Positions 2,827-36,233 of a stretch of DNA of 55,764 nucleotides are shown piece by piece. The position numbers were made by a program, and so were the translations under genes. The notes below the pieces were generated by a model. The model was given only the letters and a program-made list of their open reading frames with translations, did no database searches and was not told where the DNA came from. Numbering within the stretch: the first letter of the stretch is position 1; every line of letters begins with the position of its first letter. The DNA comes from a virus. The stretch is taken from IMG/VR virus record IMGVR_UViG_3300033402_000018; one strand, given 5' to 3'.

Positions 2827-3384
2827 ATGAAAATCAAAGACTTAAAGCTACACGCTTTCTGGAAACGGTTTTTCCGCCGCCTTAGTAGGGGATTGGGCGT
2901 GCCGAAGAAGATTGCAGCGACAGAGGTAAAAGCACCGGGAAAATACGAAGCTGGTAAGCGGTACACCATCTTTCTCGCCGGAGCCATCGACCAAGGTAAA
3001 GCGGTGGACTGGCAGCAGAAAGTCGCCCGCGCTCTGGACGAACTGGACATTCTGATCCTGAATCCGCGCAGAGAGAATTGGGACCCAAGCTGGGATCAAT
3101 CCGCAGACAATCCTGAATTCAGGCAGCAGGTAAATTGGGAACTTGACGCACAGGCGGCCGCTGATATGGTGATTTTCGTGTTCACCAAGGACAGCAAGGC
3201 ACCGATCACGTTCTTGGAATTCGGTCTGTTCGCCCCAACCAAAGACGCCGTGGTCTGCGCTGAAGAAGGCTTCTACCGCAAGGGAAATCTTGACATCGTA
3301 GCTGAGCGCTACCACATTCCAATGTATGACAATTTGGATGAGATGATCGGTGACTTGAAGACGGTGCTTGGGGAGAAAGCATGA
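2827..3384 (+). CDS. nucleoside 2-deoxyribosyltransferase-like protein
   Basis: N-terminal YTIFLAGAIDQG Rossmann-like motif typical of the NDT/RCL family; 185 aa. Confidence 0.45.
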   Translation: MKIKDLKLHAFWKRFFRRLSRGLGVPKKIAATEVKAPGKYEAGKRYTIFLAGAIDQGKAVDWQQKVARALDELDILILNPRRENWDPSWDQSADNPEFRQQVNWELDAQAAADMVIFVFTKDSKAPITFLEFGLFAPTKDAVVCAEEGFYRKGNLDIVAERYHIPMYDNLDEMIGDLKTVLGEKA

Positions 3385-6106: not shown

Positions 6107-6639
6107 TGTCAAACCTCGCTGAACTCAAAGACCTGCCCAAAGAGCGGAAGAAGTATGTCGTTGGCTTCTTGATTGATCCCACGTTGTCTAAGGTGGTGCT
6201 CGTGCGTAAGAACCGACCTGACTATCAACGCGGTCTGCTCAACGGCGTGGGCGGGAAAGTCGGAGACACGATCCTAGACGAAACCACGGAAGAGGCGATG
6301 GCCCGTGAGTTCCAAGAAGAGACGGGTGGGGTTGATCTCAACTGGCGGCGGTTCTTGCACATGATGACACCCCGGTCAGACCTGACATTTTTCTACGCCA
6401 TCGGCAATGTTCACTGTGTCCGAACACAGACCGACGAAGAAGTAGCGGTGTATGACATTTCCGATGTGATGGATCGCTGCGATACGATGCCCAATGTTCG
6501 CTGGTGCATTCAGATGGCACGCTCTATTGAGTTCGGTGAGCACGCGGATTACTTTGAAGTGGCTGAGATTTTGGAGACAGACTTACCAGCGAATTTTCAT
6601 TTCATCCCGGATGCAGCGCTTGAAAAAGAAGACCTATGA
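6106..6639 (+). CDS. NUDIX hydrolase
   Basis: Nudix box GGKVGDTILDETTEEAMAREFQEETG (GX5EX7REUXEEXGU). Confidence 0.8.
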   Translation: MSNLAELKDLPKERKKYVVGFLIDPTLSKVVLVRKNRPDYQRGLLNGVGGKVGDTILDETTEEAMAREFQEETGGVDLNWRRFLHMMTPRSDLTFFYAIGNVHCVRTQTDEEVAVYDISDVMDRCDTMPNVRWCIQMARSIEFGEHADYFEVAEILETDLPANFHFIPDAALEKEDL

Positions 6640-7574
6640 ACATTGAATCGAAACTGATACTTGCCAGCAAGAGCGAAGCAACAGGCATCACCCTTTACAC
6701 GTTTGTGCTCACGTACCCACGTGTCATCCTAGCTGAAGTAAACACGCATCGAATGCTCAGCCGCAACACCGCGTCATCTCGCGCTATTCCAGCCAAGAAA
6801 CAGCGGGAACGCGTGCTTACTGATCCGTTCGTGCCTGTCACAATTGGGGCGAATCAGAAAGGGATGCAGGCTGGTGAAGAGCTTGACGGCTGGCGTCGGT
6901 TTGTTGCGATCAACACGTGGAAACTTGCACGCTACCCAATGGTAGCGGCGTCGTGGGTACTCGACAAGGTTGGTGCGCACAAGCAAGTTGTGAACCGCAT
7001 TGTGGAGCCGTGGACGTTCACGCAGCAAGTTGTGACTTGCACCGACCTGAAGAATGTCTTCAAACTGCGCAACCACAAAGATGCAGAGCCACACTTTCAA
7101 ATCATCGCGAAACAGATGCAGATGCAAGCAGAGTGGGCCGAGAAATGGTTTAACACCCTTTCGTGGAACTCGGAGAACGCGCTTGACCGTAGATTAGAAA
7201 TCAACAACCAACTTGGTGTTGGTACTCTTCAGGTGCTAAAGCCGGGGGAGTGGCACATGCCGTTTGTTGATGAGAAGGACATCACAGACACAATCCTGAA
7301 CTCCATGCTGCATGACAGCACTGACGAATCCCTGAAGAAAATCAGCACAGCACGCTGCGCACGTGTCAGCTACTTTCTACCGGAGAGCGGCAAAAGGTCT
7401 GACCCTAAGCGTGACGTAGAGCTTTGCAATAAACTGTCCGGCTCCGGTCATTGGAGTCCGTTCGAGCACGTAGCCACGCCGACAAAAGAAGCGGATTACA
7501 TTGGCAATTTTAAGGGCTGGAAGCAGTATCGTAAAGAGTATCCGCAAGAGTCTGGAGGGGACCGTGGGAATTGA
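6636..7574 (+). CDS. thyX: flavin-dependent thymidylate synthase ThyX-like
   Basis: HRMLSRNTASSRA matches the ThyX RHRxxSxxxxSxR signature; size 312 aa. Confidence 0.6.
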   Translation: MNIESKLILASKSEATGITLYTFVLTYPRVILAEVNTHRMLSRNTASSRAIPAKKQRERVLTDPFVPVTIGANQKGMQAGEELDGWRRFVAINTWKLARYPMVAASWVLDKVGAHKQVVNRIVEPWTFTQQVVTCTDLKNVFKLRNHKDAEPHFQIIAKQMQMQAEWAEKWFNTLSWNSENALDRRLEINNQLGVGTLQVLKPGEWHMPFVDEKDITDTILNSMLHDSTDESLKKISTARCARVSYFLPESGKRSDPKRDVELCNKLSGSGHWSPFEHVATPTKEADYIGNFKGWKQYRKEYPQESGGDRGN

Positions 7575-12351: not shown

Positions 12352-13185
12352 ATGGCGAACAAACCCAGAACCGACTCGCTGGGTGACAGAATGAAGCGCT
12401 ACGAAGCAACCACGCGCTTCCTGTTGCCGCGCCGCACTTACACAATTCTTCGCGTTGATGGTCGTGCGTTCCACACGTGGACTCGCGGGCTTGACCGTCC
12501 CTATGACCGCAACTTCATGGCGTGCATGAACGAAGCCGCGCTCGAACTTTGCCAGCAGATCGCGGGAGCGCAGTTCGCTTACGTGCAGTCCGACGAAATC
12601 AGCCTGTTGGCTGTGGACTTCCTTGACATCAAAACCGAGCCGTGGTTTGAAGGCGGCGTGCAGAAATGGGCCAGCGTCGGCGCATCCATCGCAACGATGG
12701 CGTTCAACAATTGCTTGCTTCGGCTGAAGGGGGCAAACCTCGACGAGTCTGAGCTTAAGATCACCAAGAAGCTCCCGAACGCCACGTTCGACGCCCGCGT
12801 GTTCACCATCCCAGACTTGGTGGAAGTGGAAAATTATTTCGTGTGGCGGCAGCAGGATGCGGAACGCAACTCCGTCACAATGCTGGCGCAGAGCTACGCT
12901 TCCCACAAGCAACTCATGGGGAAAAATCGCGCCGCGCAGCATGAGATCATCCACAAAGCCGGGGACAATTGGGCGAAGCATCCTGTGCGTTTCAAGCATG
13001 GCGCTGTGATCCGCCGTGCCGCTGAAAACGAAGTCTGGACGGAAGTCGGCACCCATCATTTCAACTGGGTTGTGGACGAAGACACCCCAGCCTTCACCAA
13101 AGACCGCGCTTACATCCGTGGTCTGGTTCCTGTTGTTTGGGACAACGACCTTCTGGTCAGAAAGGCGGCAGCGAATGGAGAATAG
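12352..13185 (+). CDS. tRNA(His) guanylyltransferase Thg1-like protein (TLP)
   Basis: DRMKRYE, TILRVDGRAFHTWTRGL, FAYVQSDEISLL match the conserved Thg1 N-terminal palm-domain motifs. Confidence 0.7.
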   Translation: MANKPRTDSLGDRMKRYEATTRFLLPRRTYTILRVDGRAFHTWTRGLDRPYDRNFMACMNEAALELCQQIAGAQFAYVQSDEISLLAVDFLDIKTEPWFEGGVQKWASVGASIATMAFNNCLLRLKGANLDESELKITKKLPNATFDARVFTIPDLVEVENYFVWRQQDAERNSVTMLAQSYASHKQLMGKNRAAQHEIIHKAGDNWAKHPVRFKHGAVIRRAAENEVWTEVGTHHFNWVVDEDTPAFTKDRAYIRGLVPVVWDNDLLVRKAAANGE

Positions 13186-15830: not shown

Positions 15831-16373
15831 ATGGCGCAGGACGTTAATTTCAAGAAAACCGCAGCAACAGAGACGCAGTACAACACAGGCGCACAGCGGG
15901 ACAATCGAGTAGGTAAAGGGGCGTTTCACTGGATGCCGTGGGACGCCCTGTTTTGTGTCTCCCGCATCTATGAGCTTGGCAACAAAGGCCGGAGCAAAAC
16001 CGGAGACGGCAACGACCGTAATTGGGAAAACGGGATGCCGCTCATTGACCTGTTGCAGAGCGCGATCAATCACATCTCAGCCCACATCTCAGGCGACCGC
16101 AGCGAGCCGCACATCTCACAGGCAATCTGGAACCTATTGAACTACCTTCAGACTTCGATCTGGGTTATCCTAGGGTTCCGCCCCAAGGAACTCAACAAGC
16201 TGCCAGACCATCGCCATGCTTGGAAGCCGGGGGATGAGCCGCCATGCCCGTTGTCACCACAAGAGATTGAGTGGTTACAGTTCAAGGGTGTGATCCCAAA
16301 AGAGCCAGAGTTGCATGATTGCGGGCCTGAACCAGCCGTTCTTAAGGTGGTATTGCCCGGATCGGAACGCTGA
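15831..16373 (+). CDS. hypothetical protein
   Basis: 180 aa ORF. Confidence 0.5.
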   Translation: MAQDVNFKKTAATETQYNTGAQRDNRVGKGAFHWMPWDALFCVSRIYELGNKGRSKTGDGNDRNWENGMPLIDLLQSAINHISAHISGDRSEPHISQAIWNLLNYLQTSIWVILGFRPKELNKLPDHRHAWKPGDEPPCPLSPQEIEWLQFKGVIPKEPELHDCGPEPAVLKVVLPGSER

Positions 16374-16416: not shown

Positions 16417-19125
16417 ATGCCCTCCCTTCTTCACAAGCTGAGCTTCTTTGACCCCGAGGTCGGACGCTACTTCGTCGTAGCGAGCGACGGTTTTTACTGG
16501 AAAGAAGCCAAAAAATCACCTGAAGACTCCAAGGTTACAAAGCTGCTGGCTCAATACGGCTGGCAACTCCGAAACGGCAATGACGTGTGGTTGATCTTTA
16601 GACGCCCACGGACGCCGGGGGAGTTGTTCGTAATTCGTGGGGAGAAACGCTGGTATTATGATCTCCCAGATTCCGACCTGTTTGACGTAGCGGCGGAGGG
16701 TAGGGGTCTCGACAGCCTTCAACAGGCAATCGAGAGCGGTAAGCTGCCGGGAGCAAAAGCCAAGGGAATGACCGCCAGCCCCACCACAACGGCCGTCAAT
16801 AACGCCGGAAATGGTCACGGCTCCATGCCGGACGACCAGCTTGAACCAGATACCAAGTACGGCATGATGGGCCGACCGGACTACGGTTCCGGGTACACCG
16901 GAATCATGAACGAGTTGAATGCTGAAGATGATGAATGGAGCAAGGAAGCGTCCATTCTGGTTCTGAACGGCAGCGTAAAGATGGGTTCCACGACAGCGGA
17001 AACCTCGCTCTACGTCACAGGAGCGGAGTATCAAGGCTTGACGCTCACCAAGTTTACCTTCAGCCCTGACCGTCACAAGGCAAAGATTTTCCCAAAGCTT
17101 ACCGCGCAGAATCTCAGTCAACAGATTTTCGGTAAGTTCGCCACGGTTGCTCGTGTCGTGCTCGCCGCCGACTATCGCGAGATGTTTAAGGCTACCCTTG
17201 CGCTCGATCCCAAGTACGATAAAGTAATCAACCGTGAAATTGAGTGGGCTAAGCGCGTCCTCAAGAAGCAGGATCGCATCGTATGGTATCTCCGTTGGGT
17301 TCGTTTGGCTTGCGTGCATGACATGCTTGGCAGGGCGCATCTGGACGAGAACCCGGCTGGCGTTACGGCGGCTGCGGCTGCTCCCGCCCCGGCCCCAAAT
17401 CAGCCCCAGCAGCCCGCGCAGCAACAAAAGAAGCCGCAGACACGCACAGAGCAGATCAAAGCGTTGTACCAGCAGTACGACCGCGAGATGACGAATAAGA
17501 GCGGCGGCGGTGAACTTGTCACGCTGACTGACTTGGTTCACATGAAGCAGAGCCTTGAACACTTCTACTCACTGCACTCGCCAGAGATTGACAACTATAG
17601 CCCCAAGTACGAAAGCTGGAATGATCTCTACGGAAAATTCTCCGTGTTCGAGCAGGCTTGGAAGGAAGAAGCCGGGAAAGCACTCAAACCCAAAGAGGGT
17701 GATGAGATTTGGATTCAGTTCCCGGACGGCTGGGCGTGGTGGCATTTGCCACGCGCATCATGCGAAGACGAAGCTGCGGCGATGGGTCACTGCGGAAACT
17801 CACCTAATGCCAAAGCCAAGGGTGTTTCAATTCTCAGTTTGCGTAGACCGATCAAACGCGGCAATGAGACTCGCTGGGAGCCGCATCTAACTTTCATCCT
17901 GCACGGCACTGTGCTGGGCGAGATGAAAGGTAAGGGAAACGACAAGCCAGCGCCACAGTACCACAAGTACATCATCCCTTTGCTGCTGGATAAACGTATC
18001 ACTGGGGTTGGCGGCGGCGGTTATCTCGCAGAGCACAACTTTTCAATGAACGATTTGACGCCGGAACAACGCGCAGAAATCTCCAAGGCGAAGCCATCAA
18101 TGGGTATGAGCCTAAGCGGTTACTATAAAGCCTACGGCATGGACGATACATTAGCCGCCAGAATCAAGGCGATCCTTGGCATGGACTCGGCAACTTATGA
18201 TCCACAGTGGGGTTTTGCCCTGCGTTCGTGGGATACGCGTGAAGATTTCCTCGATGATGTGGGTGATTCCGAAGCATCGAAGGCCGCCACGTTCGTCCAG
18301 ACCGGGGAGCATGACTACGATGACCCAGACATTGACGAGTTGACCGACCTACTGGACGGCTTTGATGAAGTGGAACTGCATAACCTAGGGTTGCAGTTGC
18401 AGTACGATTATCCACGCGAGATGCGTGAGTGGTACGCGAACTTCAATCCAAATGATCGTGACGCGCTTAAGATGGCGCTTACGGACCTGTACAACGCGTA
18501 CATCAAGGGAGCCAAAGCACAGCATTCAAACCAGCGCAAAGGCTTGGAAAAGAAGATCAAAGAACTGGAAGCCAATGTGTCTGAAGACCCGGCGGCAGCG
18601 AACGAAGTTACTCCGCTGAAAGAGAAGCTGAAGAATTTGCGTCTCGATAAAGTCTGGGAGAAAGTTCCAGCACTGCTTGAATTGTATTCTGCTTATTTGT
18701 CAGGCGGGCCCGATCAAAACACAGTGGATAAACTACTGCGTGAAGCGCTCGAACGTGGCGTGGACGAGAGCGGGACTGAGATTCGTCGTACCAAGGACGG
18801 CAAGTGGCTGCAACTTTTGAGCGAAGAACAGGCAGTTGCCGACGCCGAAGCCGCGCAGAATCGTCACGGCACCGGAGGCTACTATGAGGCCCCGGAAATT
18901 AACGTGAGCATTCCGTATGATTGGGATGAGTTCGATGAAGAACGCGCAAGGGAATCCGCGAAGGAATATTTCAGTCGTCCGCCGAAGCGCCCGGAAGTTG
19001 ATAAGCGGCAGCGCCGTTTGTTCCCGGAACCAAAGACGGAAGAGTCCGCAAAGCGGCACGGAATCACCGTTTCCCATGCAAAGAACCCGCTTCTGCGCCG
19101 CAAGTCGTTAAAAACAAAGGTGTAG
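16417..19125 (+). CDS. large hypothetical protein (902 aa) with low-complexity AAAAPAPAPNQPQQPAQQQKK linker
   Basis: Single uninterrupted 902-aa ORF; no recognised catalytic motif; possibly virion-associated. Confidence 0.6.
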   Translation: MPSLLHKLSFFDPEVGRYFVVASDGFYWKEAKKSPEDSKVTKLLAQYGWQLRNGNDVWLIFRRPRTPGELFVIRGEKRWYYDLPDSDLFDVAAEGRGLDSLQQAIESGKLPGAKAKGMTASPTTTAVNNAGNGHGSMPDDQLEPDTKYGMMGRPDYGSGYTGIMNELNAEDDEWSKEASILVLNGSVKMGSTTAETSLYVTGAEYQGLTLTKFTFSPDRHKAKIFPKLTAQNLSQQIFGKFATVARVVLAADYREMFKATLALDPKYDKVINREIEWAKRVLKKQDRIVWYLRWVRLACVHDMLGRAHLDENPAGVTAAAAAPAPAPNQPQQPAQQQKKPQTRTEQIKALYQQYDREMTNKSGGGELVTLTDLVHMKQSLEHFYSLHSPEIDNYSPKYESWNDLYGKFSVFEQAWKEEAGKALKPKEGDEIWIQFPDGWAWWHLPRASCEDEAAAMGHCGNSPNAKAKGVSILSLRRPIKRGNETRWEPHLTFILHGTVLGEMKGKGNDKPAPQYHKYIIPLLLDKRITGVGGGGYLAEHNFSMNDLTPEQRAEISKAKPSMGMSLSGYYKAYGMDDTLAARIKAILGMDSATYDPQWGFALRSWDTREDFLDDVGDSEASKAATFVQTGEHDYDDPDIDELTDLLDGFDEVELHNLGLQLQYDYPREMREWYANFNPNDRDALKMALTDLYNAYIKGAKAQHSNQRKGLEKKIKELEANVSEDPAAANEVTPLKEKLKNLRLDKVWEKVPALLELYSAYLSGGPDQNTVDKLLREALERGVDESGTEIRRTKDGKWLQLLSEEQAVADAEAAQNRHGTGGYYEAPEINVSIPYDWDEFDEERARESAKEYFSRPPKRPEVDKRQRRLFPEPKTEESAKRHGITVSHAKNPLLRRKSLKTKV

Positions 19126-19168: not shown

Positions 19169-19798
19169 ATGACATTACTCGAACGAGCAATTGAGATCGC
19201 CGTCCACGCCCATGCTGGGCAGATGGACGAAGACGGCTTGCCGCACATCATCCACAGCCTTGAAGTCATGTTCGCTGTGAAACGCCGATTCAGCGGTGAC
19301 CGTTGCCTCGCGCCGATCCTGAAGAAATACACCGAAGAAGAACTACTCATCGCCGCCGTCTTGCACGACACCGTGGAAGATTCCAAGGGTGCGATCACTC
19401 TGGACTACATCAAGTCCGTGTTCGGTGAGAACGTGGCTGAGATCGTAGACAGCGTGACGCGGCGCGGTTTAGGCGAAGGCGAGACGAAAGAGTTTTACCG
19501 GGACTTCATCTATCGCGCCAGACTCAACGAAGGCGGTGCGATCATCAAGCTGAGCGACCTTCACCACAACTTCGGACGCCTGAACAAAATCGCCGCCAGT
19601 AAGAAGAAGTGGCGCGAGAAACTGGAGTTCAAGTACGGAATATCCATCGGCGTCATCACCGACAACATCTCATGGGAGCAAGCATCTTGGAGTGTCCAAC
19701 ACGACGGCCCCCATGCTCACTATTACATTGCTGACCCTAACGGCAAGAAGATCGAAATCCCCGAAGAAGAATTCAATCAGATTTTTGCAAAAAAGTAA
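19169..19798 (+). CDS. (p)ppGpp hydrolase, SpoT/RelA-type HD domain (small alarmone hydrolase-like)
   Basis: AHAGQMDEDGLPHIIHSLEV and AAVLHDTVEDS match the RelA/SpoT hydrolase HD-domain motifs; 209 aa with no synthetase domain. Confidence 0.7.
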   Translation: MTLLERAIEIAVHAHAGQMDEDGLPHIIHSLEVMFAVKRRFSGDRCLAPILKKYTEEELLIAAVLHDTVEDSKGAITLDYIKSVFGENVAEIVDSVTRRGLGEGETKEFYRDFIYRARLNEGGAIIKLSDLHHNFGRLNKIAASKKKWREKLEFKYGISIGVITDNISWEQASWSVQHDGPHAHYYIADPNGKKIEIPEEEFNQIFAKK

Positions 19799-19854: not shown

Positions 19855-21417
19855 ATGATGACACCGCAGGAAGAACGAATTCTCAACGCGGCACGCCAAA
19901 AGATCGAAGAGCAGCAGGAATTGCTCAGACGCCTGACCGCCCCAGCCTACCACCTTGGGATCGTCTGCGGTGTGTATCCGAAGACCGTGGTTGTGGACAC
20001 AGGTTCCCAACTCTTTGAGCTTGACCGCATCGAAGGCGGACCAGACATCAAGGTTGGTCAGGGCGTTGACATTCATCCGCAGACCGGGCAGATCGCCAAA
20101 GTTTCAGACTTCGTTTCCTACGGAAGCACCGGGACGGTATCGCAGATCGACGGCAACATCATCCAGATCAGTGTTCCGTCCGGCCTCATCACCACCGAAT
20201 ATTCGCTCATCCCGGTAAGCATCGGCGACAAGATCGTGATGAACAGCACGAACCACGTCATCATGAAGAAGCTGCCGACCGCGTCGAAGTATGCCTTCAA
20301 GACGAGCGCCGTGCTGGACTGGAAAGACATCGGCGCTTGCGAAGACGCGAAAAAAGAACTTATCGCCGCGCTCGAAACGCCTTACACCGCATCGCCGCTG
20401 TTCAAATTCTTCAACAAGGATCAGATCAAAGGCGCACTACTTTGGGGACGCCCCGGCAACGGCAAGACTTTGCTTGGACGAGCCGCCGCTGGCGCACTGG
20501 CGCGTATGCACGGCGTGGAAGCTAGGGACTCAGGCTTTATCTACATCAAGGGGCCAGAAATCCTTGACAAGTACGTTGGCGAAACTGAATCTCAGATTCG
20601 CGAAGCTTTCGCCTATGCCAAAGCGCACTTCAAGAAACACGGCTATCCGGCTGTCATGTTCGTGGACGAAGCGGACGCCGTAATGATGCGCCGTGGTTCG
20701 CGCACCGCATCCGGCATGGAAATGACCATCGTCCCGCAGTTCCTTTCTGAGATGGACGGCATCGAAGACAGCGGCGTGTTCGTGCTGCTGGCTACCAACC
20801 GTGCGGATACGCTCGATCCGGCAATCATTCGTCCCGGTCGCTGCGACCGCCGCGTCCATGTGGCACCACCCAACAAGCTCAACGCCCCGGAGATTTGGGA
20901 CATTCACATGCGCAAAGTGCCTGTAACTAACGGCGTGAGCAAAGAACAGTTGATCCAGAGCGTGAATGACACGCTGTTCAGCGAGCAATTTCCGCTCTAT
21001 TTGATTGACACGCCCAACGGACGCAAGACGTTCAGCCTTGGGAATCTTGTGTCAGGCGCTATGATCGCGGGAGCCGTGGAACGGGCATCAGCCATTGGCA
21101 TTGACCGTAATCTCATGGCCCTGTGCGGCACAACTCAGCCGACGCAGGATCAGCTTGCAAAGGTTGACCCAAAGAAATTTGACGGTCTCTCGCAAGGGGA
21201 CTTCACCGCCGCGCTTGCCGCCATGCACAAAGAGCAGTACGGCATGAACCATTTCGATGAACTGCGTGAGTTTATCGACATGCAGAAGCTCGAAGTCACG
21301 TCCATTGAGCAATGCCACGATGGGCAAAAGATCGAACGCCCGAAGCCGCAGCCGCGCAAGGAACCAGAGATCATCGGTGTTATTCCAATGCCGACAGGGA
21401 AGAAGTTCGACGCATAA
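19855..21417 (+). CDS. proteasome-associated ATPase family AAA+ protein (Mpa/ARC/PAN-like)
   Basis: N-terminal coiled coil then OB-like region (YHLGIVCGVYPKTVVVDTGSQLFEL). Walker A GRPGNGKT. ARC-specific insertion FIYIKGPEILDKYVGETESQIR (compare Mpa [22 protein letters not shown]). Walker B VMFVDEAD. TIVPQFLSEMDGIE...LLATNRADTLDPAIIRPGRCDRRVHV (compare Mpa TVVPQLLSEIDGVE...ASNREDMIDPAILRPGRLD). Confidence 0.8.
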   Translation: MMTPQEERILNAARQKIEEQQELLRRLTAPAYHLGIVCGVYPKTVVVDTGSQLFELDRIEGGPDIKVGQGVDIHPQTGQIAKVSDFVSYGSTGTVSQIDGNIIQISVPSGLITTEYSLIPVSIGDKIVMNSTNHVIMKKLPTASKYAFKTSAVLDWKDIGACEDAKKELIAALETPYTASPLFKFFNKDQIKGALLWGRPGNGKTLLGRAAAGALARMHGVEARDSGFIYIKGPEILDKYVGETESQIREAFAYAKAHFKKHGYPAVMFVDEADAVMMRRGSRTASGMEMTIVPQFLSEMDGIEDSGVFVLLATNRADTLDPAIIRPGRCDRRVHVAPPNKLNAPEIWDIHMRKVPVTNGVSKEQLIQSVNDTLFSEQFPLYLIDTPNGRKTFSLGNLVSGAMIAGAVERASAIGIDRNLMALCGTTQPTQDQLAKVDPKKFDGLSQGDFTAALAAMHKEQYGMNHFDELREFIDMQKLEVTSIEQCHDGQKIERPKPQPRKEPEIIGVIPMPTGKKFDA

Positions 21418-22274: not shown

Positions 22275-24353
22275 ATGACTAACAAAGAACTGGTGCAGAT
22301 GTTCAACGCCGATCTGGAAGCAGCGCGGGACGCCTACTACAAGAAGGCGGAACCGATCATGACCGACGCGGAATATGACGCTATGGAAAAGAGTCTCCGC
22401 AATCTCATTACCGTGTTTCCGGGACTCGCCGAGTTCGCACCTGTCCTGAAGACGGTCGGCTCTGACCTTACGTCCAGTGGGCGCATCAAACACGCTGTCC
22501 CGATGCTCAGCATCGAAAACCAGTACACTGAAGAGGATTTCACTGGTCAGTATGACAAGTGGGGCGCGAACATGCCTGTTGTGCTGGAGCCGAAGTTTGA
22601 CGGCATCAGCGTCTCCATCCTGTATCTCAACGGCGTGCTTGAACGGGCGCTGACTCGCGGCGACGGCACGTCCGGCGAGAACATCACCGCAGCGGTTAAA
22701 GCGGTCAAATCCATCCCCCAGACTCTTCCGATAGATGTGTTCACCAGCCAATGCGAGATTCGCGGTGAGCTTGTGATGGCAAACGCCACACTCGAACGCA
22801 TCAACCGGGAAGCGGCGGCGATAGGCGGTAAGCAGTATTCCAGCACGCGCAACTTGACTGCCGGAACGATGAAGCAGCGTGACATGGACATCGTTGCCAG
22901 TCGAGACATTTTGCTCATGCCGTGGGATGTGCTTAGTGTCAGCGCTTGGAAAGATGGCAAGCAGTTATTGCCGGACAGCCGTTACGAGCGCTTGCTTCTA
23001 CTGAGCGAACACGGCTTTGAAGAGCCAAAGGGTATTCGTTGCTTCCTTCGGGATGCGATCATCCCGGCGCTTCACATTCTCCTGAAGCACAACAAAGAGC
23101 GTGCAGTTAATTGTGACGGCGTTGTCATGAAGGTAGATAGTGTGACCGCGTGCAAAGAGCTTGGCAACGGCTCCAAATACACGAACTGGCAGACCTGCTT
23201 CAAACCACAGTCTGCGTCCGGCACTACATACTTGCGTGAGATTCAATGGCAAGTGGGGCGCACGGGCGTCATCAGTCCGGTTGCGAAATGTGACGTGGTT
23301 GTCTTGGCTAGTGCTAACGTCACCAGTGCCAGCTTGAACAACATCACGTTCATCCGCAAGATGGGCCTGAAGCTGGGCGCGAAAGTTGAAATGCTGCGCT
23401 CCGGCGATGTCATCCCGCAGATCGTGCGCGTCATTGATGACGGTGACGAAGAGATCAACCCTCCAACTCACTGTCCTGAATGCAACAGTCTGACGGAGTT
23501 GCGGGACGAAGGCGGGCAAGGCATTATCCAGTGCTTCTGCACCAGCCCGTTCTGCCCCGCACAGATCATAGGCTACCTTTCGTTCGTCGGCAGTCGTGAC
23601 GTTCTGGAGATCGACGGTCTGGGGCCGGAAATGGCGCGTAAGCTGGTCGAAGGTGAGTTCACTCGCGATCTTGCTGAGCTTTATGAATTTCAGCAGGACA
23701 TGATGAACATCCTCACGAAATTTGACGAGGAAACACTGATTCGCGGCGGACGCAAAAAAGGCTTTGACGCCACTCTTCCGAAGATGGTTCGGTCATTGGA
23801 GAAGGCGAAAACCGCGCCGTGGGAACGCTGGATCAAAGCGCTTGGCATTCCGATGATTGGCGAGACGCTGGGCAAGGTGGTCGCGTCTACTCTCGATCTT
23901 CAGGAAAAGAGCATGGCTACGCTGGATGTTGACCTGATCCTTTTTGCCGGGAAAGAAGTAGACGGGTTCGGTGAAGCCAAGATGAGCGCGATCCGAAGCT
24001 GGGCGGAACGAAACGGTGAACTCTGCCGGAAGCTCTACGGACTTGGTATTCGTCCTACTCCGATGGAAAAGGTGGTGGTCGCCGAAGGCGCACCACTGAA
24101 AGGTGTCGTCTTCTGCATCACCGGGGAGTTCAGCGAAGACCGCGATGCCCTGACGAAGAAGCTGGTTGCGCTTGGCGCGGAAGCGAAGTCCGGTGTCACT
24201 AAGAAAATCAACCTCTTAATCGTCGGGGAGAGCGCCGGAAAAACAAAATTGACCAAAGCCAAGGAACTTGGCATCAAACAGGTAGGCAAAGAGTGGCTGG
24301 AACAGGCGCTTGGCGGACTTAAGCCTGATACCTTCGCCGCTGAGAGGGCGTAA
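22275..24353 (+). CDS. ligA: NAD+-dependent DNA ligase LigA
   Basis: N-terminal Ia-like domain (EAARDAYY...DAEYDAM), KxDG adenylation motif (LEPKFDGISV), OB and Zn-finger (CPECNS...C..C), HhH region, C-terminal BRCT (VFCITGEFS...LLIVGESAG). Confidence 0.9.
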   Translation: MTNKELVQMFNADLEAARDAYYKKAEPIMTDAEYDAMEKSLRNLITVFPGLAEFAPVLKTVGSDLTSSGRIKHAVPMLSIENQYTEEDFTGQYDKWGANMPVVLEPKFDGISVSILYLNGVLERALTRGDGTSGENITAAVKAVKSIPQTLPIDVFTSQCEIRGELVMANATLERINREAAAIGGKQYSSTRNLTAGTMKQRDMDIVASRDILLMPWDVLSVSAWKDGKQLLPDSRYERLLLLSEHGFEEPKGIRCFLRDAIIPALHILLKHNKERAVNCDGVVMKVDSVTACKELGNGSKYTNWQTCFKPQSASGTTYLREIQWQVGRTGVISPVAKCDVVVLASANVTSASLNNITFIRKMGLKLGAKVEMLRSGDVIPQIVRVIDDGDEEINPPTHCPECNSLTELRDEGGQGIIQCFCTSPFCPAQIIGYLSFVGSRDVLEIDGLGPEMARKLVEGEFTRDLAELYEFQQDMMNILTKFDEETLIRGGRKKGFDATLPKMVRSLEKAKTAPWERWIKALGIPMIGETLGKVVASTLDLQEKSMATLDVDLILFAGKEVDGFGEAKMSAIRSWAERNGELCRKLYGLGIRPTPMEKVVVAEGAPLKGVVFCITGEFSEDRDALTKKLVALGAEAKSGVTKKINLLIVGESAGKTKLTKAKELGIKQVGKEWLEQALGGLKPDTFAAERA

Positions 24354-27506: not shown

Positions 27507-29327
27507 ATGCACATCAAACCGCAAGCAAAGATCGCTCTGGTAGTTGTTCTGGTTCTGGGCGTAGTCTTCGGACTCCGCACCGCCGCAGAGCATGGATTGA
27601 TCCCAACCCCCGGCATCATGAAGGCGTTGGTGCCTCAGAAGGCTGTCCTGCCTGATGTAAAGGATGCTCAAGTTCAGAACGTCGCCCCTGTAGCCCTCCC
27701 GCAAGACTCCCCGGCTAACGTTCAAGCCACGCCGATTCGTGGCGCGATCTGGGAATGGAACGCTCAGATGGGCATGATCTTCGCCAACGGCGGCGCAACC
27801 ACGACCGCTGGTTCGTTGATGGCGAAGCGCAACGTCAACCTGATTCTGTATCGTCAGGACGACACCAGCAAGATGCAAGAAGACCTGATCGCTTGCGCCA
27901 AGGAACTGCATGACGGCAATCCGTCTTGCTCGAACGGTGCAAACTTCGTGGTCATCATGGGAGACGGCGCTGGTCAGTTTGCCGCCGCAGTCAACCCGCA
28001 GCTTGCTAAGCTGGGCCCGCAATATCTCGTGAAGGTCATCGCCGCCACTGGTTACAGCCGTGGTGAAGATGCTTTCATGGCTCCCCCGGACGTGAAGAAG
28101 AGTCCCGCCGCTGCGAAGGGACTTCTGGTTGAAGGCGTGCTCCGCGATGGCGACTGGAATATTGCCATGAAGTGGGCTGCTGACAACAACATCCCCAACA
28201 ACCCGGACGAGAAGACCTACGACGCCAACGCTCTCAACTGGATTAACGCGCCGGACTACAATACCGCCGCGTCTGATTACGTTGCTGGCAAGTGCGAAGA
28301 CCGCAAGGTCGTAAAAGACGGTCACCCGACTGGCGAAACGAAGCACGTCTGCGTCAATGCGGTCGTGACTTGGACTCCCGGCGACGTGACGGCTGCTACT
28401 CAAAAGGGCGGCTTGGTCAAGGTGGTTTCGTCCAAGCAGTACCGTTCGCAGATGCCCGCTGTGGTCCTTGGCCCCGGCAAGTTCTTCGCCGACAATCGTG
28501 ACGAAGTAACCAACATGATCGCTGCCATCTTTGAAGGTGGAGATCAGGTTAAGGCGTTTGACACGTCTCTGCGCAAGGCTGCGGTCATTTCGACCAAGGT
28601 CTACAATGACGAAGGCGATCAGACTTCGCACAACGGCGATTTCTGGTATCGCTACTTCAAGGGCGTCCCGTACAAGGATCAGACCACGGGCGCGACTGTT
28701 GAGCTTGGCGGCTCCGCAGTGAACAACCTTGATGACAACCTCATCCTGTTCGGCTTGAAGCCCGGAACCAACGACAACTTCCGCAGCACCTACACGGTGT
28801 TTGCCAACATCGACGTTCAACAGTATCCGCAGTTGTTCAAAGAGACGCCGATTCCAGACGTGAAGTTGGTCGAAGACAAGTCTTACATCACCGGAGCACA
28901 GGCTGTTCTGTCCGGCGAAGGTGACACTGGTTCTGAAGCCAGCGCTCCGGCTTACGAGCAGGAAGCCAGCGGCGAGACCGTTTCCAGCCGCTCGTACAAC
29001 ATCAACTTCCAAACGGGAAGTGGGCAGCTTACGCCGCAAGGCGAACAGCAGCTTCGCGATCTGAAAGATGGTCTGGCAATCACCGGACTGTTCATTCAGG
29101 TGGACGGATACACCGACAACACTGGCTCTGATAGCGTTAACATCCCGCTGTCTCAGGCTCGTGCGGAGTCCGTGCGCAACTTCCTGCAACGCAACTATCC
29201 CGGCAACTTCCCGAACAAACGGTTCGCGGTCGCCGGACATGGTTCGCAGAACCCAATCGCGTCGAACGCCACGGCGGACGGTAAAGCTCAGAACCGCCGC
29301 GTGACGATCACGTTGAAAGGCAACTAA
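27507..29327 (+). CDS. large exported/membrane-anchored protein with C-terminal OmpA-like peptidoglycan-binding domain; N-terminal portion possibly a solute-binding domain
   Basis: N-terminal signal anchor; C-terminus VDGYTDNTGSDSVNIPLSQARAESVRNFL...AVAGHGSQNPIASN...NRRVTITLK matches the OmpA/MotB C-domain consensus; followed by intrinsic terminator. Confidence 0.65.
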   Translation: MHIKPQAKIALVVVLVLGVVFGLRTAAEHGLIPTPGIMKALVPQKAVLPDVKDAQVQNVAPVALPQDSPANVQATPIRGAIWEWNAQMGMIFANGGATTTAGSLMAKRNVNLILYRQDDTSKMQEDLIACAKELHDGNPSCSNGANFVVIMGDGAGQFAAAVNPQLAKLGPQYLVKVIAATGYSRGEDAFMAPPDVKKSPAAAKGLLVEGVLRDGDWNIAMKWAADNNIPNNPDEKTYDANALNWINAPDYNTAASDYVAGKCEDRKVVKDGHPTGETKHVCVNAVVTWTPGDVTAATQKGGLVKVVSSKQYRSQMPAVVLGPGKFFADNRDEVTNMIAAIFEGGDQVKAFDTSLRKAAVISTKVYNDEGDQTSHNGDFWYRYFKGVPYKDQTTGATVELGGSAVNNLDDNLILFGLKPGTNDNFRSTYTVFANIDVQQYPQLFKETPIPDVKLVEDKSYITGAQAVLSGEGDTGSEASAPAYEQEASGETVSSRSYNINFQTGSGQLTPQGEQQLRDLKDGLAITGLFIQVDGYTDNTGSDSVNIPLSQARAESVRNFLQRNYPGNFPNKRFAVAGHGSQNPIASNATADGKAQNRRVTITLKGN

Positions 29328-29405: not shown

Positions 29406-29621
29406 ATGAGACCGAAACCAGCAGACGTTGAATTGAAGATCGCTGAGAGTGTCGGCTGGTACATTGACGTAACTAACGAAGAGAAGTGGCTGGTGCGTGA
29501 CGGCGGCGTGAATCAATGGGTCGGCCCCGGCGCAGCTACGGACGCGGAACTGAAATTGTGGGTTCTGCTGCTGACCAAGATTGTGACGAAAGAAGCCAAG
29601 GAATTTTTGGAGAGCCTGTAA
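29406..29621 (+). CDS. hypothetical protein
   Basis: 71 aa ORF after terminator. Confidence 0.35.
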   Translation: MRPKPADVELKIAESVGWYIDVTNEEKWLVRDGGVNQWVGPGAATDAELKLWVLLLTKIVTKEAKEFLESL

Positions 29622-30406
29622 TGAGTGAGTTCATTTCCGCTTACACACCGAACAAACCCACCAAGGTATCCACGGTCAAGATGCTGATCGCTAGCTATGC
29701 CGCGTTCTTCTTCGTGTTCTGGTTCTTCTCGCCGTTCCCGTTCCTGCCTTCAATCGGTGAAACATGGGCAGCGTGGGTTGAGCAGTGGGGGCAAGGCTTA
29801 GGCGGGGAACTCATTACTAGCTTCGAAGCCAACTTGCAAGCTATCGCTCTTTCTTCTCTCATCTCGCTGGGACTTGCCTATTTGACAGTGCTCGCCGGAT
29901 TCCGTCCAATCGTCACGTTCCTGTCCAAGCTACGCTTCCTTTCAATGGTCGGCTTGAGCTTTTTCTTCACGGTTGCCACGAAGACACAGCACCAACTCAA
30001 GATCAGCTTGTTGGTGTTCAGCATCAGTGTGTTCTTCGTGACCGGGATGGCTGACGTGATCGAGTCAATTCCGAAAGAACAGTATGATCTTGCACGCACG
30101 CTGCGCATGGGGCCGTGGCGCACCGTCTGGGAAGTAGTAGTGCTGGGTCAAATTGACAAGGCGTTTGATGTGCTGCGCCAGAACGCCGCCATCGGATGGA
30201 TGATGCTTACGATGATTGAAAGCATGGTTCGTTCCGAAGGCGGCATTGGCGCTATGCTCACCACCGCGAACAAACACTTTTACCTTAACGCAGTCTTTGC
30301 CATCCAGATCACCATTCTGTTGATGGGGTTGGGGCAGGACTACTTGATCGGCGCATCGAAGAAGCTCTTCTGTCCGTATGCCGCGCTGGGATCGGAGCGC
30401 AAGTGA
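29621..30406 (+). CDS. ABC transporter permease (NitT/TauT-type binding-protein-dependent inner-membrane component)
   Basis: Six hydrophobic segments; EAA-like loop KEQYDLARTLRMGPWRTVWEVVVLG; TAATG overlap start. Confidence 0.75.
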   Translation: MSEFISAYTPNKPTKVSTVKMLIASYAAFFFVFWFFSPFPFLPSIGETWAAWVEQWGQGLGGELITSFEANLQAIALSSLISLGLAYLTVLAGFRPIVTFLSKLRFLSMVGLSFFFTVATKTQHQLKISLLVFSISVFFVTGMADVIESIPKEQYDLARTLRMGPWRTVWEVVVLGQIDKAFDVLRQNAAIGWMMLTMIESMVRSEGGIGAMLTTANKHFYLNAVFAIQITILLMGLGQDYLIGASKKLFCPYAALGSERK

Positions 30407-30798
30407 AGAACCTTGAAGGATACGCGCTGATAGCGCTCGTGCTGTTCACATTGTTCACATTGTTCACCATTGGCTGCGGAAGCACGCCTCCTGTATGGAC
30501 AGCCTATACTGCGGAAGCTGTGTACCTGAACGAACCCGGCTCCGTGTCAATTCTGATGCGTAACGAAGATAACAGTCTTTCGGTGAAAAAGTTTTATGTC
30601 AGTACCGATGCACTGATTATCAAAGACGACATCGTTGATTCCCGCGCACATCCATGGGTGAGTGTTGAGCAAGAGAGTGAGATGGGCGACTTGGTGACTA
30701 CCAAAATCACAGTCCACGTTCACAGCATCAAAGAAATCCAGCCCGGACACTGGAACCACGGAAAGTTCGGACAGGGACAAGATCAGCAGATAGAATAG
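30403..30798 (+). CDS. lipoprotein
   Basis: Signal peptide with lipobox TIGCGS. Confidence 0.5.
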   Translation: MKNLEGYALIALVLFTLFTLFTIGCGSTPPVWTAYTAEAVYLNEPGSVSILMRNEDNSLSVKKFYVSTDALIIKDDIVDSRAHPWVSVEQESEMGDLVTTKITVHVHSIKEIQPGHWNHGKFGQGQDQQIE

Positions 30799-30807
30799 GG
30801 GAAGACA

Positions 30808-31263
30808 ATGGGCTTCATATTTGGGATAGTGGTTGGGATTTGCCTTGCGGCGCTTATAGGGCATTGCTGGCAGGAAGACGGCTGTGACCACACATGGAAA
30901 GTCACCGCTGCGCATCAGATGATGCTCGTACACACCATCCACGGCGTTACCATTGGGGAGCCGGATGATGGGCAACCAGTCACCGAAGTGCTTTCTCGCT
31001 GCACCGTCTGCGGGGAAACGGTCACCGAAGAACTCTCAGGTCACTGGACTTACGAGCAGCTATCCGGTGAGCCGGATGCGTCCGGGGAAAACACAACTTT
31101 TTGGCGAACGGCGAAAAAGCCGGAGCCGGAGCAAACCGATATTTTTTGGCGAACGGCGAAAAAGCCGGAGCCGGAGCAAACCGATGATCGAAGTGGGACA
31201 GGAAGTGACGCGCTGGCTGGCGGGGACAATCCCGATGCAGCTAAAAGTGACAGCGGTAACTGA
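30808..31263 (+). CDS. hypothetical membrane-anchored protein containing a 15-aa tandem repeat
   Basis: N-terminal TM helix; FWRTAKKPEPEQTDI / FWRTAKKPEPEQTDD from a perfect 45-bp tandem duplication; 3-prime end uncertain. Confidence 0.4.
   Translation: MGFIFGIVVGICLAALIGHCWQEDGCDHTWKVTAAHQMMLVHTIHGVTIGEPDDGQPVTEVLSRCTVCGETVTEELSGHWTYEQLSGEPDASGENTTFWRTAKKPEPEQTDIFWRTAKKPEPEQTDDRSGTGSDALAGGDNPDAAKSDSGN
31101..31190 (+). repeat. perfect 45-bp tandem duplication (2 copies)
   Basis: TTGGCGAACGGCGAAAAAGCCGGAGCCGGAGCAAACCGAT repeated with period 45. Confidence 0.8.
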
Positions 31264-31447
31264 AGACCGAATCATCTGCGGCGACTACGAGTTCGACAAA
31301 CGGACTGGCGCTGAGATTGATGACTTCATGGGATTCGGGCCGGACTTCACAGGCAGCTACATCAAGGTTCCCGGCGTGAACTATGTTCAGGCTTCTGATG
31401 AAGAAGCACTGGCACGTCTCGAACAAATCGGCAAGAAAGGCGAATGA
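31184..31447 (+). CDS. hypothetical protein
   Basis: MIEVGQEVTRW... in alternative frame beginning inside the duplicated segment; overlaps the previous call. Confidence 0.35.
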   Translation: MIEVGQEVTRWLAGTIPMQLKVTAVTEDRIICGDYEFDKRTGAEIDDFMGFGPDFTGSYIKVPGVNYVQASDEEALARLEQIGKKGE

Positions 31448-31597
31448 TATGAATGCCGCGATCAAAGAAGTTATCGAGAAGCACGTCTGGGCGTATGGGC
31501 CTAACCGCAAAGGCTGCGTTATGTTCATGACGGATGGCGTCAGGGAAGTAGCCAACGAACTTGAAATCAGCTATCGGGCGGCGGAAGAGCTTGTCCG

Positions 31598-32497
31598 ATG
31601 CTGGATTGGGGAGACATTCTAATGGCGGCACTTTATCCATACACCTACGGGCCTACGCTTCTTAAAATCGACAACGTTTGCCTATCGGCGTCGTCTGACG
31701 GTCTGCGGTTGCTCGAACACGAAGAACCGGGGAGCCGCCCCATTCTGAAGAACGTGAGCGCCGAAATCAAGAAGATCGACCGTGTTGGATACGTTAACGG
31801 TCAGATCGTAGGATTCATCGGCCCGTCTGGTATCGGCAAAACACAGCTTTTCCGCATCATTGCCGGACTCAACAAGCCAACATCAGGTTCCGTCACGATC
31901 AATGGCGGCAAAGTGGTGCAGGCAGGTGAAGTAGGCGTCGTGGCGCAGAATTACCCGCTCTTTGCGCATCGCACGGTCATGAGTAACCTCATGCTCGCCG
32001 CCAAACAGAAAGAGAAAGACCCCAAAGTAGCGCATGACAAAATCATGACGTTCTTGAACGAATTCAAGCTGGCGGACAAGGCCCCATTGTATCCGGCGCA
32101 GTTATCAGGTGGGCAGAAGCAGCGCATCGCCATCATTCAGCAAATCCTGTGCTCAGAGCATTTCCTGCTCATGGATGAGCCTTTCTCCGGCTTGGACATC
32201 ATCGTAGAAGGCAAATGCACTGAGTTGATCTTGAAGGTTGCCAACATGGACGGCTTGAACACCGTGATCGTAGTCACGCATGACATTTCAGCCGCCGCAG
32301 CCATCGCCGATCACATCTGGGCATTGGGGCGTGAGCATGATGCTGAAGGCAACCCGCTCCCCGGCGCGAGTATTGTGAAGACCTACGACCTGATAAACGA
32401 AGGTCTGTGCTGGACACAGTTGGGTGAACACGCGATGGTTCAACCAAACATGGTTGAGTTCATCCGCCAAGTCAAGGAAGATTTCTACAAGTTCTAA
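31598..32497 (+). CDS. ABC transporter ATP-binding protein
   Basis: Walker A GPSGIGKT, signature LSGGQKQRIAI, Walker B LLMDEPFSGLD, H-loop VTHD. Confidence 0.8.
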   Translation: MLDWGDILMAALYPYTYGPTLLKIDNVCLSASSDGLRLLEHEEPGSRPILKNVSAEIKKIDRVGYVNGQIVGFIGPSGIGKTQLFRIIAGLNKPTSGSVTINGGKVVQAGEVGVVAQNYPLFAHRTVMSNLMLAAKQKEKDPKVAHDKIMTFLNEFKLADKAPLYPAQLSGGQKQRIAIIQQILCSEHFLLMDEPFSGLDIIVEGKCTELILKVANMDGLNTVIVVTHDISAAAAIADHIWALGREHDAEGNPLPGASIVKTYDLINEGLCWTQLGEHAMVQPNMVEFIRQVKEDFYKF

Positions 32498-35638: not shown

Positions 35639-35728
35639 GGTGAGTTGGGAGAGTGGTTGATTCCGCTGGTTTGCTAAACCAGAGCACCCGAAAGGGTGCC
35701 ACAGGTTCGAATCCTGTACTCACCGCCA
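35639..35728 (+). tRNA. tRNA-Ser (anticodon GCU)
   Basis: Manual fold: acceptor GGTGAGT/ACTCACC, 3-bp D stem, anticodon stem CTGGT/ACCAG with loop TTGCTAA, long variable hairpin, T arm ACAGG-TTCGAAT-CCTGT, discriminator G, encoded CCA. Confidence 0.75.
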
Positions 35729-35729
35729 T

Positions 35730-35815
35730 GGTAGGTTTGGGCATTGGAAGGCCCACCTGTCTCGAAAACAGGCGACCGAAAGGTCGTAGGAGTTCGACTC
35801 TCCTACCTACCGCCA
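35730..35815 (+). tRNA. tRNA-Ser (anticodon CGA)
   Basis: Acceptor GGTAGGT/ACCTACC, anticodon stem CCTGT/ACAGG with loop CTCGAAA, long variable arm, T arm GGAGTTCGACTCTCC, G discriminator, CCA. Confidence 0.7.
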
Positions 35816-36032
35816 AATTTTAAGCTGGGCGGTGTATGGCACGGATACTTCTCGAAAAAGTAAAAACCCGTGACCGCGATGTTCCCCGGCAAAGTGTAAG
35901 TTCGCAGCGGTGTTGGATACAGTTACTTCGGTTGACTCTCTCAGGGAAACCTGAATGAGGAATAGACTTGGTTCGATCCCAAGCGACCAGCCGTAAGGCT
36001 GGTGTCAACTGTACCGTTTGTTCCCTGCGATT

Positions 36033-36122
36033 GGTGAGTTGGGGGAGTGGTTTAACCCACTTCGTTGGAAGCGAAGCGCACCCGAAAGGGTGCCGTGAGT
36101 TCGAATCTCACACTCACCGCCA
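36033..36122 (+). tRNA. tRNA-Ser (anticodon GGA)
   Basis: Acceptor GGTGAGT/ACTCACC, anticodon stem CTTCG/CGAAG with loop TTGGAAG, long variable hairpin CGCACCCGAAAGGGTGC, T arm GTGAG-TTCGAAT-CTCAC, G discriminator, CCA. Confidence 0.75.
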
Positions 36123-36127
36123 AGTTT

Positions 36128-36213: not shown

Positions 36214-36233
36214 AATTTGCGGCTGTTAAATTT

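Follow-up and report, generated by a model that had tools for sequence, protein, structure and literature searches.

A putative Aph-type adenosine 3'-pyrophosphohydrolase gene on DNA of an apparently large phage

The gene, its product and its active site

The IMG/VR virus record IMGVR_UViG_3300033402_000018, a stretch of 55,764 nucleotides that is called the window here, contains a complete gene for a small hydrolase at 19169..19798 on the plus strand, from ATG to TAA with the stop codon included. The gene is supported by the list of open reading frames (ORFs), by profile matches and by conservation among homologues, and the ORFs that overlap it on either strand are short and unsupported. Its product has 209 amino acids and a single HD hydrolase domain of the RelA/SpoT type (RSH). 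A preliminary description of this DNA, made from the sequence letters alone, had reported a 209-residue stand-alone protein with the motifs AHAGQ and LHDTVEDS, and both the ORF and the motifs were found exactly as described: AHAGQ occupies residues 14-18 (nucleotides 19208-19222) and LHDTVEDS residues 65-72 (nucleotides 19361-19384). The absence of a synthetase domain, which had also been claimed, was borne out by the end of the protein at residue 209 and by the next gene, which encodes an AAA+ ATPase; the multidomain layout of the long RSH enzymes (hydrolase plus synthetase plus TGS/ACT) is not found in a protein that ends there.

Family assignment was consistent across several resources. The Pfam model HD_4, which the preliminary description had named as a check, scored 31.6 bits against a gathering score of 27.2, and phrog_990 ('metal-dependent phosphohydrolase') matched with E = 3.9e-28. 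The long-RSH model TIGR00691 (spoT_relA) was matched only over its positions 1-132 of 687 (E = 1e-13), with 50.5 bits against a cut-off of 499. In the Protein Data Bank (PDB), 23 chains of RSH hydrolases match the sequence, the best with E = 5e-15. Public pipelines name the protein '(p)ppGpp synthase/HD superfamily hydrolase'. None of the PADLOC defence-system models matches the hydrolase, and a scan for promoters and terminators around its gene gave none exceeding shuffled expectation.

A search among 5.8 billion proteins yielded 149 homologues, nearly all of them 200-240 residues long, 42-60% identical and aligned over the full length. Conservation was judged on an alignment of 54 of these homologues, which are otherwise 44-62% identical. 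The following positions are invariant in this alignment: D20, H29, V33, L65, H66, D67, E70 and D71 in the N-terminal part, E108, Y110, D112, R116, K127, D130, N134, R137 and I141 in the middle, and K151, L152, K155, Y156, W169, E170 and P190 in the C-terminal part. Loss of the Mn-binding His and Asp residues, the finding that would have spoken against a hydrolase, was looked for and not seen, as the metal tetrad of H29, H66, D67 and D130 (RelSeq H53, H77, D78 and D144) is complete and unchanged in all 54 sequences. The catalytic pair E70-D71 and the residue N134, which correspond to RelSeq E81, D82 and N148, are invariant as well.

These residues lie in short motifs, all on the plus strand. 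The first metal ligand, H29 (RelSeq H53, Aph1 H33), is encoded at 19253..19255 and is both invariant and aligned with its counterparts. The LHDTVED motif (residues 65-71; 19361..19381) carries the metal ligands H66-D67 and the catalytic pair E70-D71, and these four residues are identical in Aph1 and Rel. In the motif KLSDLHHNFGR (residues 127-137; 19547..19579), D130 is a metal ligand and N134 the ribose-binding residue, and K127 and R137 also belong to it. Between the first His and the HD motif lies a variable insertion (about residues 34-55; 19268..19333), which is longer than the corresponding part of Aph1 or Rel and varies in length inside the subfamily. The invariance of the metal tetrad, the E70-D71 pair and N134 indicates strong constraint on the active site, and judged by these residues the enzyme is almost certainly active. 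That the protein should be catalytically dead, or should serve as a purely structural or regulatory HD fold, is hardly credible when all metal and catalytic residues are retained in sequences that have otherwise diverged to 44-62% identity.

The base pocket and the closest relatives

The closest relative of solved structure is Aph1 (adenosine 3'-pyrophosphohydrolase 1), a (p)ppApp-specific hydrolase of Bacteroides caccae (7SMG; Ahmad et al. 2023, PMC10083569), which is 39% identical to the phage protein over 144 aligned columns. Both are stand-alone proteins with the HD/ED active site, and both are encoded on prophage or phage DNA. The Aph family was defined through a search with the C-terminal 53 residues of Aph1, and six signature residues, namely D24, R96, D116, R119, K133 and Y134, were assigned to it (PMC10083569). 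Five of the six have counterparts in the phage protein, namely D20, R116, K155 and Y156 and, in the register given by HMMER and BLASTP, R137.

A comparison of the individual positions separates the Aph and Rel patterns. Position 20, in the motif AHAGQMDEDG (residues 14-23; 19208..19237, plus strand), is an invariant Asp as in Aph1 (D24), whereas Rel has the guanine-stacking Arg (RelSeq R44, TtRel R43). In the motif EFYRDFIYR (residues 108-116; 19490..19516, plus strand), which is of the Aph type and in which E108, Y110, D112 and R116 are invariant, Tyr at position 110 corresponds to Aph1 Y90 (Ile or His in Rel), Asp at position 112 to Aph1 D92 (Lys in Rel), and Arg at position 116 to the signature residue R96 (Ala in Rel). 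Arg at position 137 is taken as the counterpart of Aph1 R119, where Rel has Thr. The K-Y pair at positions 155-156, in the motif KLEFKY (residues 151-156; 19619..19636, plus strand) with its invariant K151, L152, K155 and Y156, corresponds to Aph1 K133-Y134 (LNKY at 131-134 in the full sequence), and Rel is not aligned there. The guanine-recognizing set of RelSeq, R44, K45, S46 and T151, is thus not found, its places being taken by D20, E21, D22 and R137, and the same four positions are R43, R44, S45 and T153 in TtRel (roles as given in PMC10083569). The acidic loop formed by E21 and D22 (DEDG) is specific to the subfamily, as these two residues are K-A in Aph proteins and K/Q-S in Rel.

Structural comparison also put Aph1 first. 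An AlphaFold2 model computed from the homologue alignment had a mean pLDDT of 95.2 and a pTM of 0.90, and its sole block of lower confidence was residues 41-50 (mean pLDDT 80). In Foldseek, ranks 1-4 were all Aph1 (TM on target 0.81-0.86, 31-32% identity), followed by Mesh1, Rel, SpoT, RelH and PaSAH, and all 32 PDB matches at E <= 0.001 were RSH hydrolases. The long RSH enzymes (RelSeq, 1VJ7; Mtb Rel, 5XNX; Thermus thermophilus Rel, 6S2T) share the HD fold, the metal ligands, the ED pair, the Asn and the Lys with the phage protein, which is without their synthetase, TGS and ACT domains and has the central motif E-x-Y-R-D-F-I-Y-R as against E-x-[IH]-R-K-M-x-x-A. The small alarmone hydrolases (SAHs) MESH1, PaSAH and RelH (3NR1, 5VXA, 6YVC and 7QOD) are single-domain proteins of similar size and have the next-best fold (TM on query 0.56-0.59), but they are only 20-25% identical to the phage protein, and their extra C-terminal element is a helix and not a beta-sheet module. 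SAHs of this type are without the Aph signature and hydrolyse (p)ppGpp (PMC10083569).

By single sequence, the top solved relative was again Aph1 (5e-15), the best Rel reaching 1e-11. With the family profile Aph1 also came first, at 72.8 bits, with Mtb Rel at 69.7 and RelSeq at 67.2 bits. Because the total scores are this close, the profile score alone was rejected as a discriminator between Aph and Rel (72.8 versus 69.7 bits), and the signature residues and the C-terminal half were used as criteria instead. When the C-terminal half of the core was searched alone, Aph1 was the sole PDB match. An emulated iterative search seeded with Aph1 Y90-E143 retrieved the phage protein at iteration 2 (7e-8), and the Mtb and Bacillus subtilis Rel fragments were not retrieved by it.

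The position of the subfamily was examined further by an exhaustive HMMER search of the family profile against 1.84 billion cluster representatives. It found 33,165 proteins at E <= 1e-3 and only 33 at E <= 1e-30, and the whole profile, including its C-terminal part, was covered by only about 17 representatives. Below these full-length representatives come mostly proteins of about 140-175 residues that match the core only. Among the nearest relatives of up to 200 residues, 109 in number, Asp at position 20 occurs in 99, Arg at position 116 in 108 and Tyr at position 110 in 105, and [K/R]-Y at 155-156 is present in every one of the 109 that aligns there. This pattern places the subfamily with the Aph-like proteins, and its sequences indicate that it is nested within them or is their sister group, and does not belong with the long RSH enzymes.

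Our reading is that the protein is an Aph-type adenosine 3'-pyrophosphohydrolase that is used by the phage to neutralise RSH-type toxins, and we put its probability at roughly 55%. A number of observations count against it. The sixth signature residue, Aph1 D116, is missing, as G136 stands there (Gly, Ser, Glu, Lys or Arg in the subfamily), and the base loop N134-R137 is two residues shorter than in Aph1; the D116 position is varied in the 109 Aph-like relatives too, being Ser in 42, Asp in 14, Arg in 11 and Gly in 10. The equivalence of R137 and Aph1 R119 depends on the aligner: HMMER and BLASTP pair the two residues and MAFFT places R137 two columns off, although the identical spacing of four from Arg to a hydrophobic residue (R137/I141 and R119/L123) favours the HMMER register. 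The protein has E21 where 92 of the 109 relatives have Lys, and H26 where 87 have Tyr, so that its pocket is unlike that of any tested enzyme. The profile score of Aph1 barely exceeds those of Mtb Rel and RelSeq, and the emulated Aph1-seeded search also took in one long RSH, which means that this test is not fully specific; the long RSH in question has Rel-type residues at the positions compared above, which shows that the residue comparison does discriminate. Among 12 assayed Aph homologues, two gave some, modest ppGpp hydrolysis (PMC10083569). Finally, the window searches revealed no toxin or synthetase partner close to the hydrolase gene. Neither an RSH synthetase nor a toxin was found by precomputed Pfam matches of the called genes up to about 42 kb, or by Pfam on the larger ORFs beyond about 42 kb; a six-frame search of the window with one synthetase domain, a weak test, was negative; and the annotation of five related loci shows no RelA_SpoT toxin within 6-8 kb on either side.

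The pocket also bears on the reading closest to the public annotation, in which the protein is a (p)ppGpp hydrolase like SpoT or Mesh1, with which the phage lowers host (p)ppGpp and prevents or reverses the stringent response during a long infection. The fold and the catalytic machinery are common to (p)ppGpp hydrolases, and the near-equal profile scores of Mtb Rel and RelSeq, the name given by public pipelines and the modest ppGpp activity of two of the 12 Aph homologues would all agree with such an enzyme; the acidic E21 and D22 could moreover accept hydrogen bonds from guanine N1/N2. Against this, the guanine-stacking Arg is replaced by an invariant Asp and TtRel S45 and T153 by D22 and R137, Y110, D112 and R116 are of the Aph type, and the C-terminal half matches Aph1 alone among solved structures. 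Aph1 itself hydrolyses ppGpp only after the double substitution D24R plus R119A (PMC10083569). We therefore regard a (p)ppGpp hydrolase as unlikely, if still worth serious attention, and infer from the residues that base selection follows the Aph pattern, with adenine rather than guanine. Hydrolysis of (p)ppGpp by this protein is accordingly improbable on residue grounds, and the public '(p)ppGpp synthase/hydrolase' label probably names the wrong nucleotide. The preliminary description had called the protein a SpoT-type (p)ppGpp hydrolase that could blunt the host stringent response. The small alarmone hydrolase in that proposal stands, with its RelA/SpoT HD type and intact site; its (p)ppGpp specificity is not supported, the pocket residues being of the Aph type, and the suggested effect on the stringent response does not fit a protein in which D20 has replaced the guanine-stacking Arg.

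The C-terminal add-on, the phage clade and the gene neighbourhood

The phage protein differs from Aph1 (143 residues) mainly in length, its 209 residues including a longer insertion after the first His and a 52-residue beta3-alpha module at the C-terminus. Its base loop reads DEDG as against DKAG in Aph1, it has His at the place of Aph1 Tyr30, and its gene has no adjacent toxin or Tis1-like gene, unlike that of Aph1. From its Aph-like relatives the subfamily also stands apart by D22, the longer variable insertion after H29 and the add-on, which comprises residues 158-209 (19640..19795, plus strand). In the model, the helical HD core ends in a helix equivalent to the last one of Aph1. The final part of a helix opens the add-on, and past residue 166 come a short helix, an antiparallel sheet of three beta strands and the terminal helix. 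W169, E170 and P190 are invariant in it, and the turn ADPNGKKIE (nucleotides 19730-19756) is near-invariant. No structural match was found for the beta3-alpha add-on. With it the model departs from the compact eight-helix protomer of Aph enzymes, which has no further C-terminal elements. In Aph1 the tetramer interface is formed by the very terminus to which the add-on is attached here, and the oligomeric state may therefore differ from the Aph1 tetramer.

Proteins with this architecture were found on viral and metagenome contigs. A protein identical to the query is present on contigs of up to 128 kb, full-length homologues in a conserved gene order occur on metagenome contigs that measure 438-465 kb, and IMG/VR viral contigs, the longest of 463 kb, hold six further loci. 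Contigs of 447-465 kb that belong to the clade are Ga0683288_0000021, Ga0672865_0000005 and IMGVR_UViG_3300033405_000001. No full-length relative was found in 185,579 bacterial and archaeal species genomes (one genome each), where the best matches do not exceed 40% identity and are mostly limited to the HD core. The subfamily thus appears to be specific to a clade of huge phages, in which it is a syntenic core gene. Two kinds of apparent relative were set aside. Agrobacterium phage Atu_ph07 seemed to have a full-length homologue (98% query coverage in tblastn), but the alignment reads through a stop, and the annotated protein has 151 residues and no add-on. In relatives with an extended N-terminus (P0242, P0246 and others) Pfam finds only HD_4, plus a weak HNH match in one; they resemble fusions produced by gene calling and were uninformative.

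The window itself looks like part of a large phage genome, with nearly all genes on one strand and five tRNA genes. A megablast search of 9.5 kb around the hydrolase gene against 50,697 phage records gave no match, so this is a phage without a sequenced close relative. In the related loci on contigs of 438-465 kb the gene order is that of the window, namely Thg1, UPF0114, dGTP_diPhyd_N, a variable slot, HD_4 and AAA+, and continues with three small genes, a DNA ligase and an OmpA-domain protein.

The AAA+ ATPase (520 residues; 19855-21417, plus strand) starts 56 bases downstream of the hydrolase. A coiled-coil-like segment at its N-terminus is followed by a single AAA module of the classical clade. 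Among PDB entries the D2 modules of VAT/p97/Cdc48 match it best (4e-75), and further matches are to two PADLOC models, IetA and the TRIP13 ATPase. Of the five related loci examined, four have the ATPase gene after the hydrolase, and the fifth (L011) lacks it but keeps the hydrolase. A functional pair of HD hydrolase and AAA+ ATPase was rejected, since the whole block is syntenic and L011 has the hydrolase without the ATPase. Upstream lies a protein of 902 residues (16417-19125, plus strand) with a low-complexity Ala/Pro/Gln stretch and no Pfam, PHROG or PADLOC match. In relatives its slot, a variable region in the syntenic block, is occupied by a GP88-family protein (PF17338) or by small ORFs. 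This protein was considered as a toxin partner and rejected, because it has no matches and because its slot holds unrelated genes in the relatives.

Farther downstream, the ligase slot (22275-24353, plus strand) holds an NAD-dependent LigA-type enzyme with BRCT in the window, L011 and L012, and an ATP-dependent ligase (DNA_ligase_A_M) in three other loci (L005-L007), a non-orthologous replacement within the clade. A protein of 606 residues (27507-29327, plus strand) has a C-terminal OmpA domain and is conserved in relatives, and near it (29516-32497, plus strand) lie genes for an ABC-transporter ATPase (31598-32497) and for a protein with a faint likeness to permeases; all three are membrane-associated auxiliary genes in a phage. 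A protein of 815 residues (50013-52460, plus strand) matches the shoulder domain of the Major Vault Protein (PF11978) at 3.3e-26 and a Vault_3 repeat at 5.5e-11; its match to SPFH/Band_7 is weak, and PHROG gives none. Such a vault/SPFH-like protein is unusual in a phage.

Upstream of the 902-residue protein, from about 4.5 to 16.4 kb on the plus strand, is a dense block of nucleotide-metabolism genes. It includes genes for IscA-like and NifU-like Fe-S assembly proteins, two dCMP deaminase-like proteins, NUDIX, MazG-like and HNH proteins, as well as ThyX (6636-7574, plus strand) and a MazZ-like protein with the N-terminal domain of dATP/dGTP diphosphohydrolases (dGTP_diPhyd_N; 15831-16373, plus strand). 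The MazZ-like protein is a hint of modified-base or dNTP-pool editing. Another HD-domain protein, unrelated to the hydrolase (2187-2819, plus strand; PF01966, 7.8e-15, and HD_5), is flanked by a gene resembling dual-specificity phosphatases (DSPc; 1480-2190) and a nucleoside 2-deoxyribosyltransferase-like gene (2827-3384). Genes of tRNA maintenance recur through the window, at 12352-13185, 52726-53562, about 37.2-37.5 kb and 35639-36311. They comprise a Thg1-like tRNA-His guanylyltransferase (phrog_4717, 1.6e-76), the RNA-repair nucleotidyltransferase RlaP (PF10127, 1.7e-17) and the peptidyl-tRNA hydrolase PTH2, and the tRNA genes are a cluster of four for tRNA-Ser (GCT, CGA, GGA and TGA) and one for tRNA-Leu(TAA).

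Substrate, role and meaning

On the basis of the gene, the fold, the intact active site, the Aph-type signature, the phage restriction and the synteny, a substrate and a role can be proposed. By homology, H29, H66, D67 and D130 would hold Mn2+ or Mg2+, E70-D71 would activate water and N134 would hold the ribose, so that the 3'-diphosphate would be removed, converting pppApp to ATP and ppApp to ADP with release of pyrophosphate. The choice of adenine would be set by D20, R137, R116 and K155-Y156, to judge from the identity of these residues. All 12 purified Aph homologues taken from sequence clusters hydrolysed ppApp (PMC10083569). During infection, the enzyme would destroy adenosine 3'-pyrophosphates made by RSH-type toxins, which may come from toxSAS abortive-infection modules of the host or from (p)ppApp-synthesising effectors injected by competitors. 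It would act on (p)ppApp and possibly on tRNA with a pyrophosphorylated A76, and with these removed, ATP and translation would stay at the disposal of the phage.

Toxins of both kinds have been described. Tas1, FaRel and the MuF toxins Apk1/Apk2 make (p)ppApp, and the toxSAS CapRel, FaRel2 and PhRel pyrophosphorylate tRNA at A76 and act in antiphage defence (PMC9712102; PMC11559606). SAHs can remove the 3'-pyrophosphate from tRNA and restore it (10.1101/2021.04.30.441581). The stand-alone SAHs of Salmonella phage PVP-SE1 (PbcSpo) and phage SSU5 (PaSpo), tested by Jimmy et al. 2020, which like the present protein are single-domain, phage-encoded and without a toxin partner, neutralise every toxSAS tested, both (pp)pApp-producing and tRNA-pyrophosphorylating ones (PMC7229694). 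These published phage SAHs make a counter-defence role plausible, and in this respect the preliminary description, which had also considered action against the signalling nucleotides of defence systems, was well directed.

The PVP-SE1 protein gp220, which was taken to be the tested SAH as it is the only match in that phage record, is 30.5% identical to the query over 131 aligned columns. Like the query it has the Aph-type Asp at position 20, the D..R loop and the KY motif, but it has 169 residues and no add-on, and no residue of it is aligned at the R96/R116 position. If gp220 is indeed the tested SAH, it links Aph-type pockets with broad anti-toxSAS activity. The gp220 gene (GU070616, 136782-137291) encodes the RSH-type HD hydrolase of that phage and is annotated merely as 'conserved hypothetical protein'; its orthologues in many Vequintavirinae are called 'GTP pyrophosphokinase' or 'metal-dependent phosphohydrolase'.

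A narrower version of this role would make the protein a dedicated repair enzyme for the tRNA 3' end, and not a hydrolase of free (p)ppApp, that reverses antiphage toxins of the CapRel, FaRel2 and PhRel type. Its add-on, with the ADPNGKKIE turn, and its DEDG loop would then adapt a pocket of the Aph type to the CCA end of tRNA with its pyrophosphorylated A76, and it would act alongside the Thg1-like enzyme, RlaP, PTH2 and the five tRNA genes of the window. We consider this rather improbable as a specific proposal.

About as doubtful is the proposal that the enzyme acts on some other 3'-phosphorylated substrate in remodelling of the nucleotide pool, such as NADPH or PAPS (as MESH1 does), pGpp or 3'-phosphorylated (deoxy)nucleotides. 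RSH hydrolases are versatile, structures of MESH1 with NADPH and PAPS exist and tRNA-PP is a substrate too, the gene lies in a block with MazG, NUDIX, MazZ-like protein, dCMP deaminases, ThyX, deoxyribosyltransferase and the second HD protein, and the DEDG loop, H26 and the add-on are unlike those of every characterized enzyme. Against it stand the invariant counterparts of five Aph signature residues out of six, R137 being taken as one of them, and the ppApp hydrolysis common to all of the Aph homologues assayed.

An Aph-type enzyme could also serve self-immunity, protecting against a (p)ppApp-synthesising toxin that the same phage encodes elsewhere. Such a toxin might be Apk-like, associated with MuF or the virion, and enter the cell together with the DNA. 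Aph1 plays this role for Apk2 in a Bacteroides prophage, and the present genome is only partly visible, the window being 55.8 kb and the longest gene-bearing contig 128 kb as compared with 438-465 kb in relatives. Yet no RelA_SpoT or synthetase domain was found in the window, although the six-frame part of that search is weak, the neighbours are the unannotated 902-residue protein of the variable slot and the AAA+ ATPase, and only 0.4% of Aph homologues adjoin MuF genes (PMC10083569). Self-immunity therefore seems quite improbable here, and neutralisation of toxins from the host or from competitors by an Aph-type enzyme is the reading that we prefer.

The RSH superfamily, the Aph family, phage-encoded SAHs and the proposed role have already been published, and no new field is opened here. 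What is new is the Aph-type assignment, the restriction of the subfamily to huge phages, the altered base loop and the conserved C-terminal module, and the routine annotation as '(p)ppGpp synthase/hydrolase' is corrected. The natural variation of the pocket (DEDG and the shortened loop), together with the appended module, should be useful to dissect specificity for ppApp, ppGpp and tRNA-PP. Hydrolases specific for (p)ppApp were defined only in 2023, and phage-encoded small alarmone hydrolases are an accepted yet little-studied route of counter-defence. The retention of an Aph-type enzyme as a syntenic core gene throughout a clade of huge phages implies that these phages are repeatedly threatened by adenosine 3'-pyrophosphorylation, be it of nucleotides or of tRNA.

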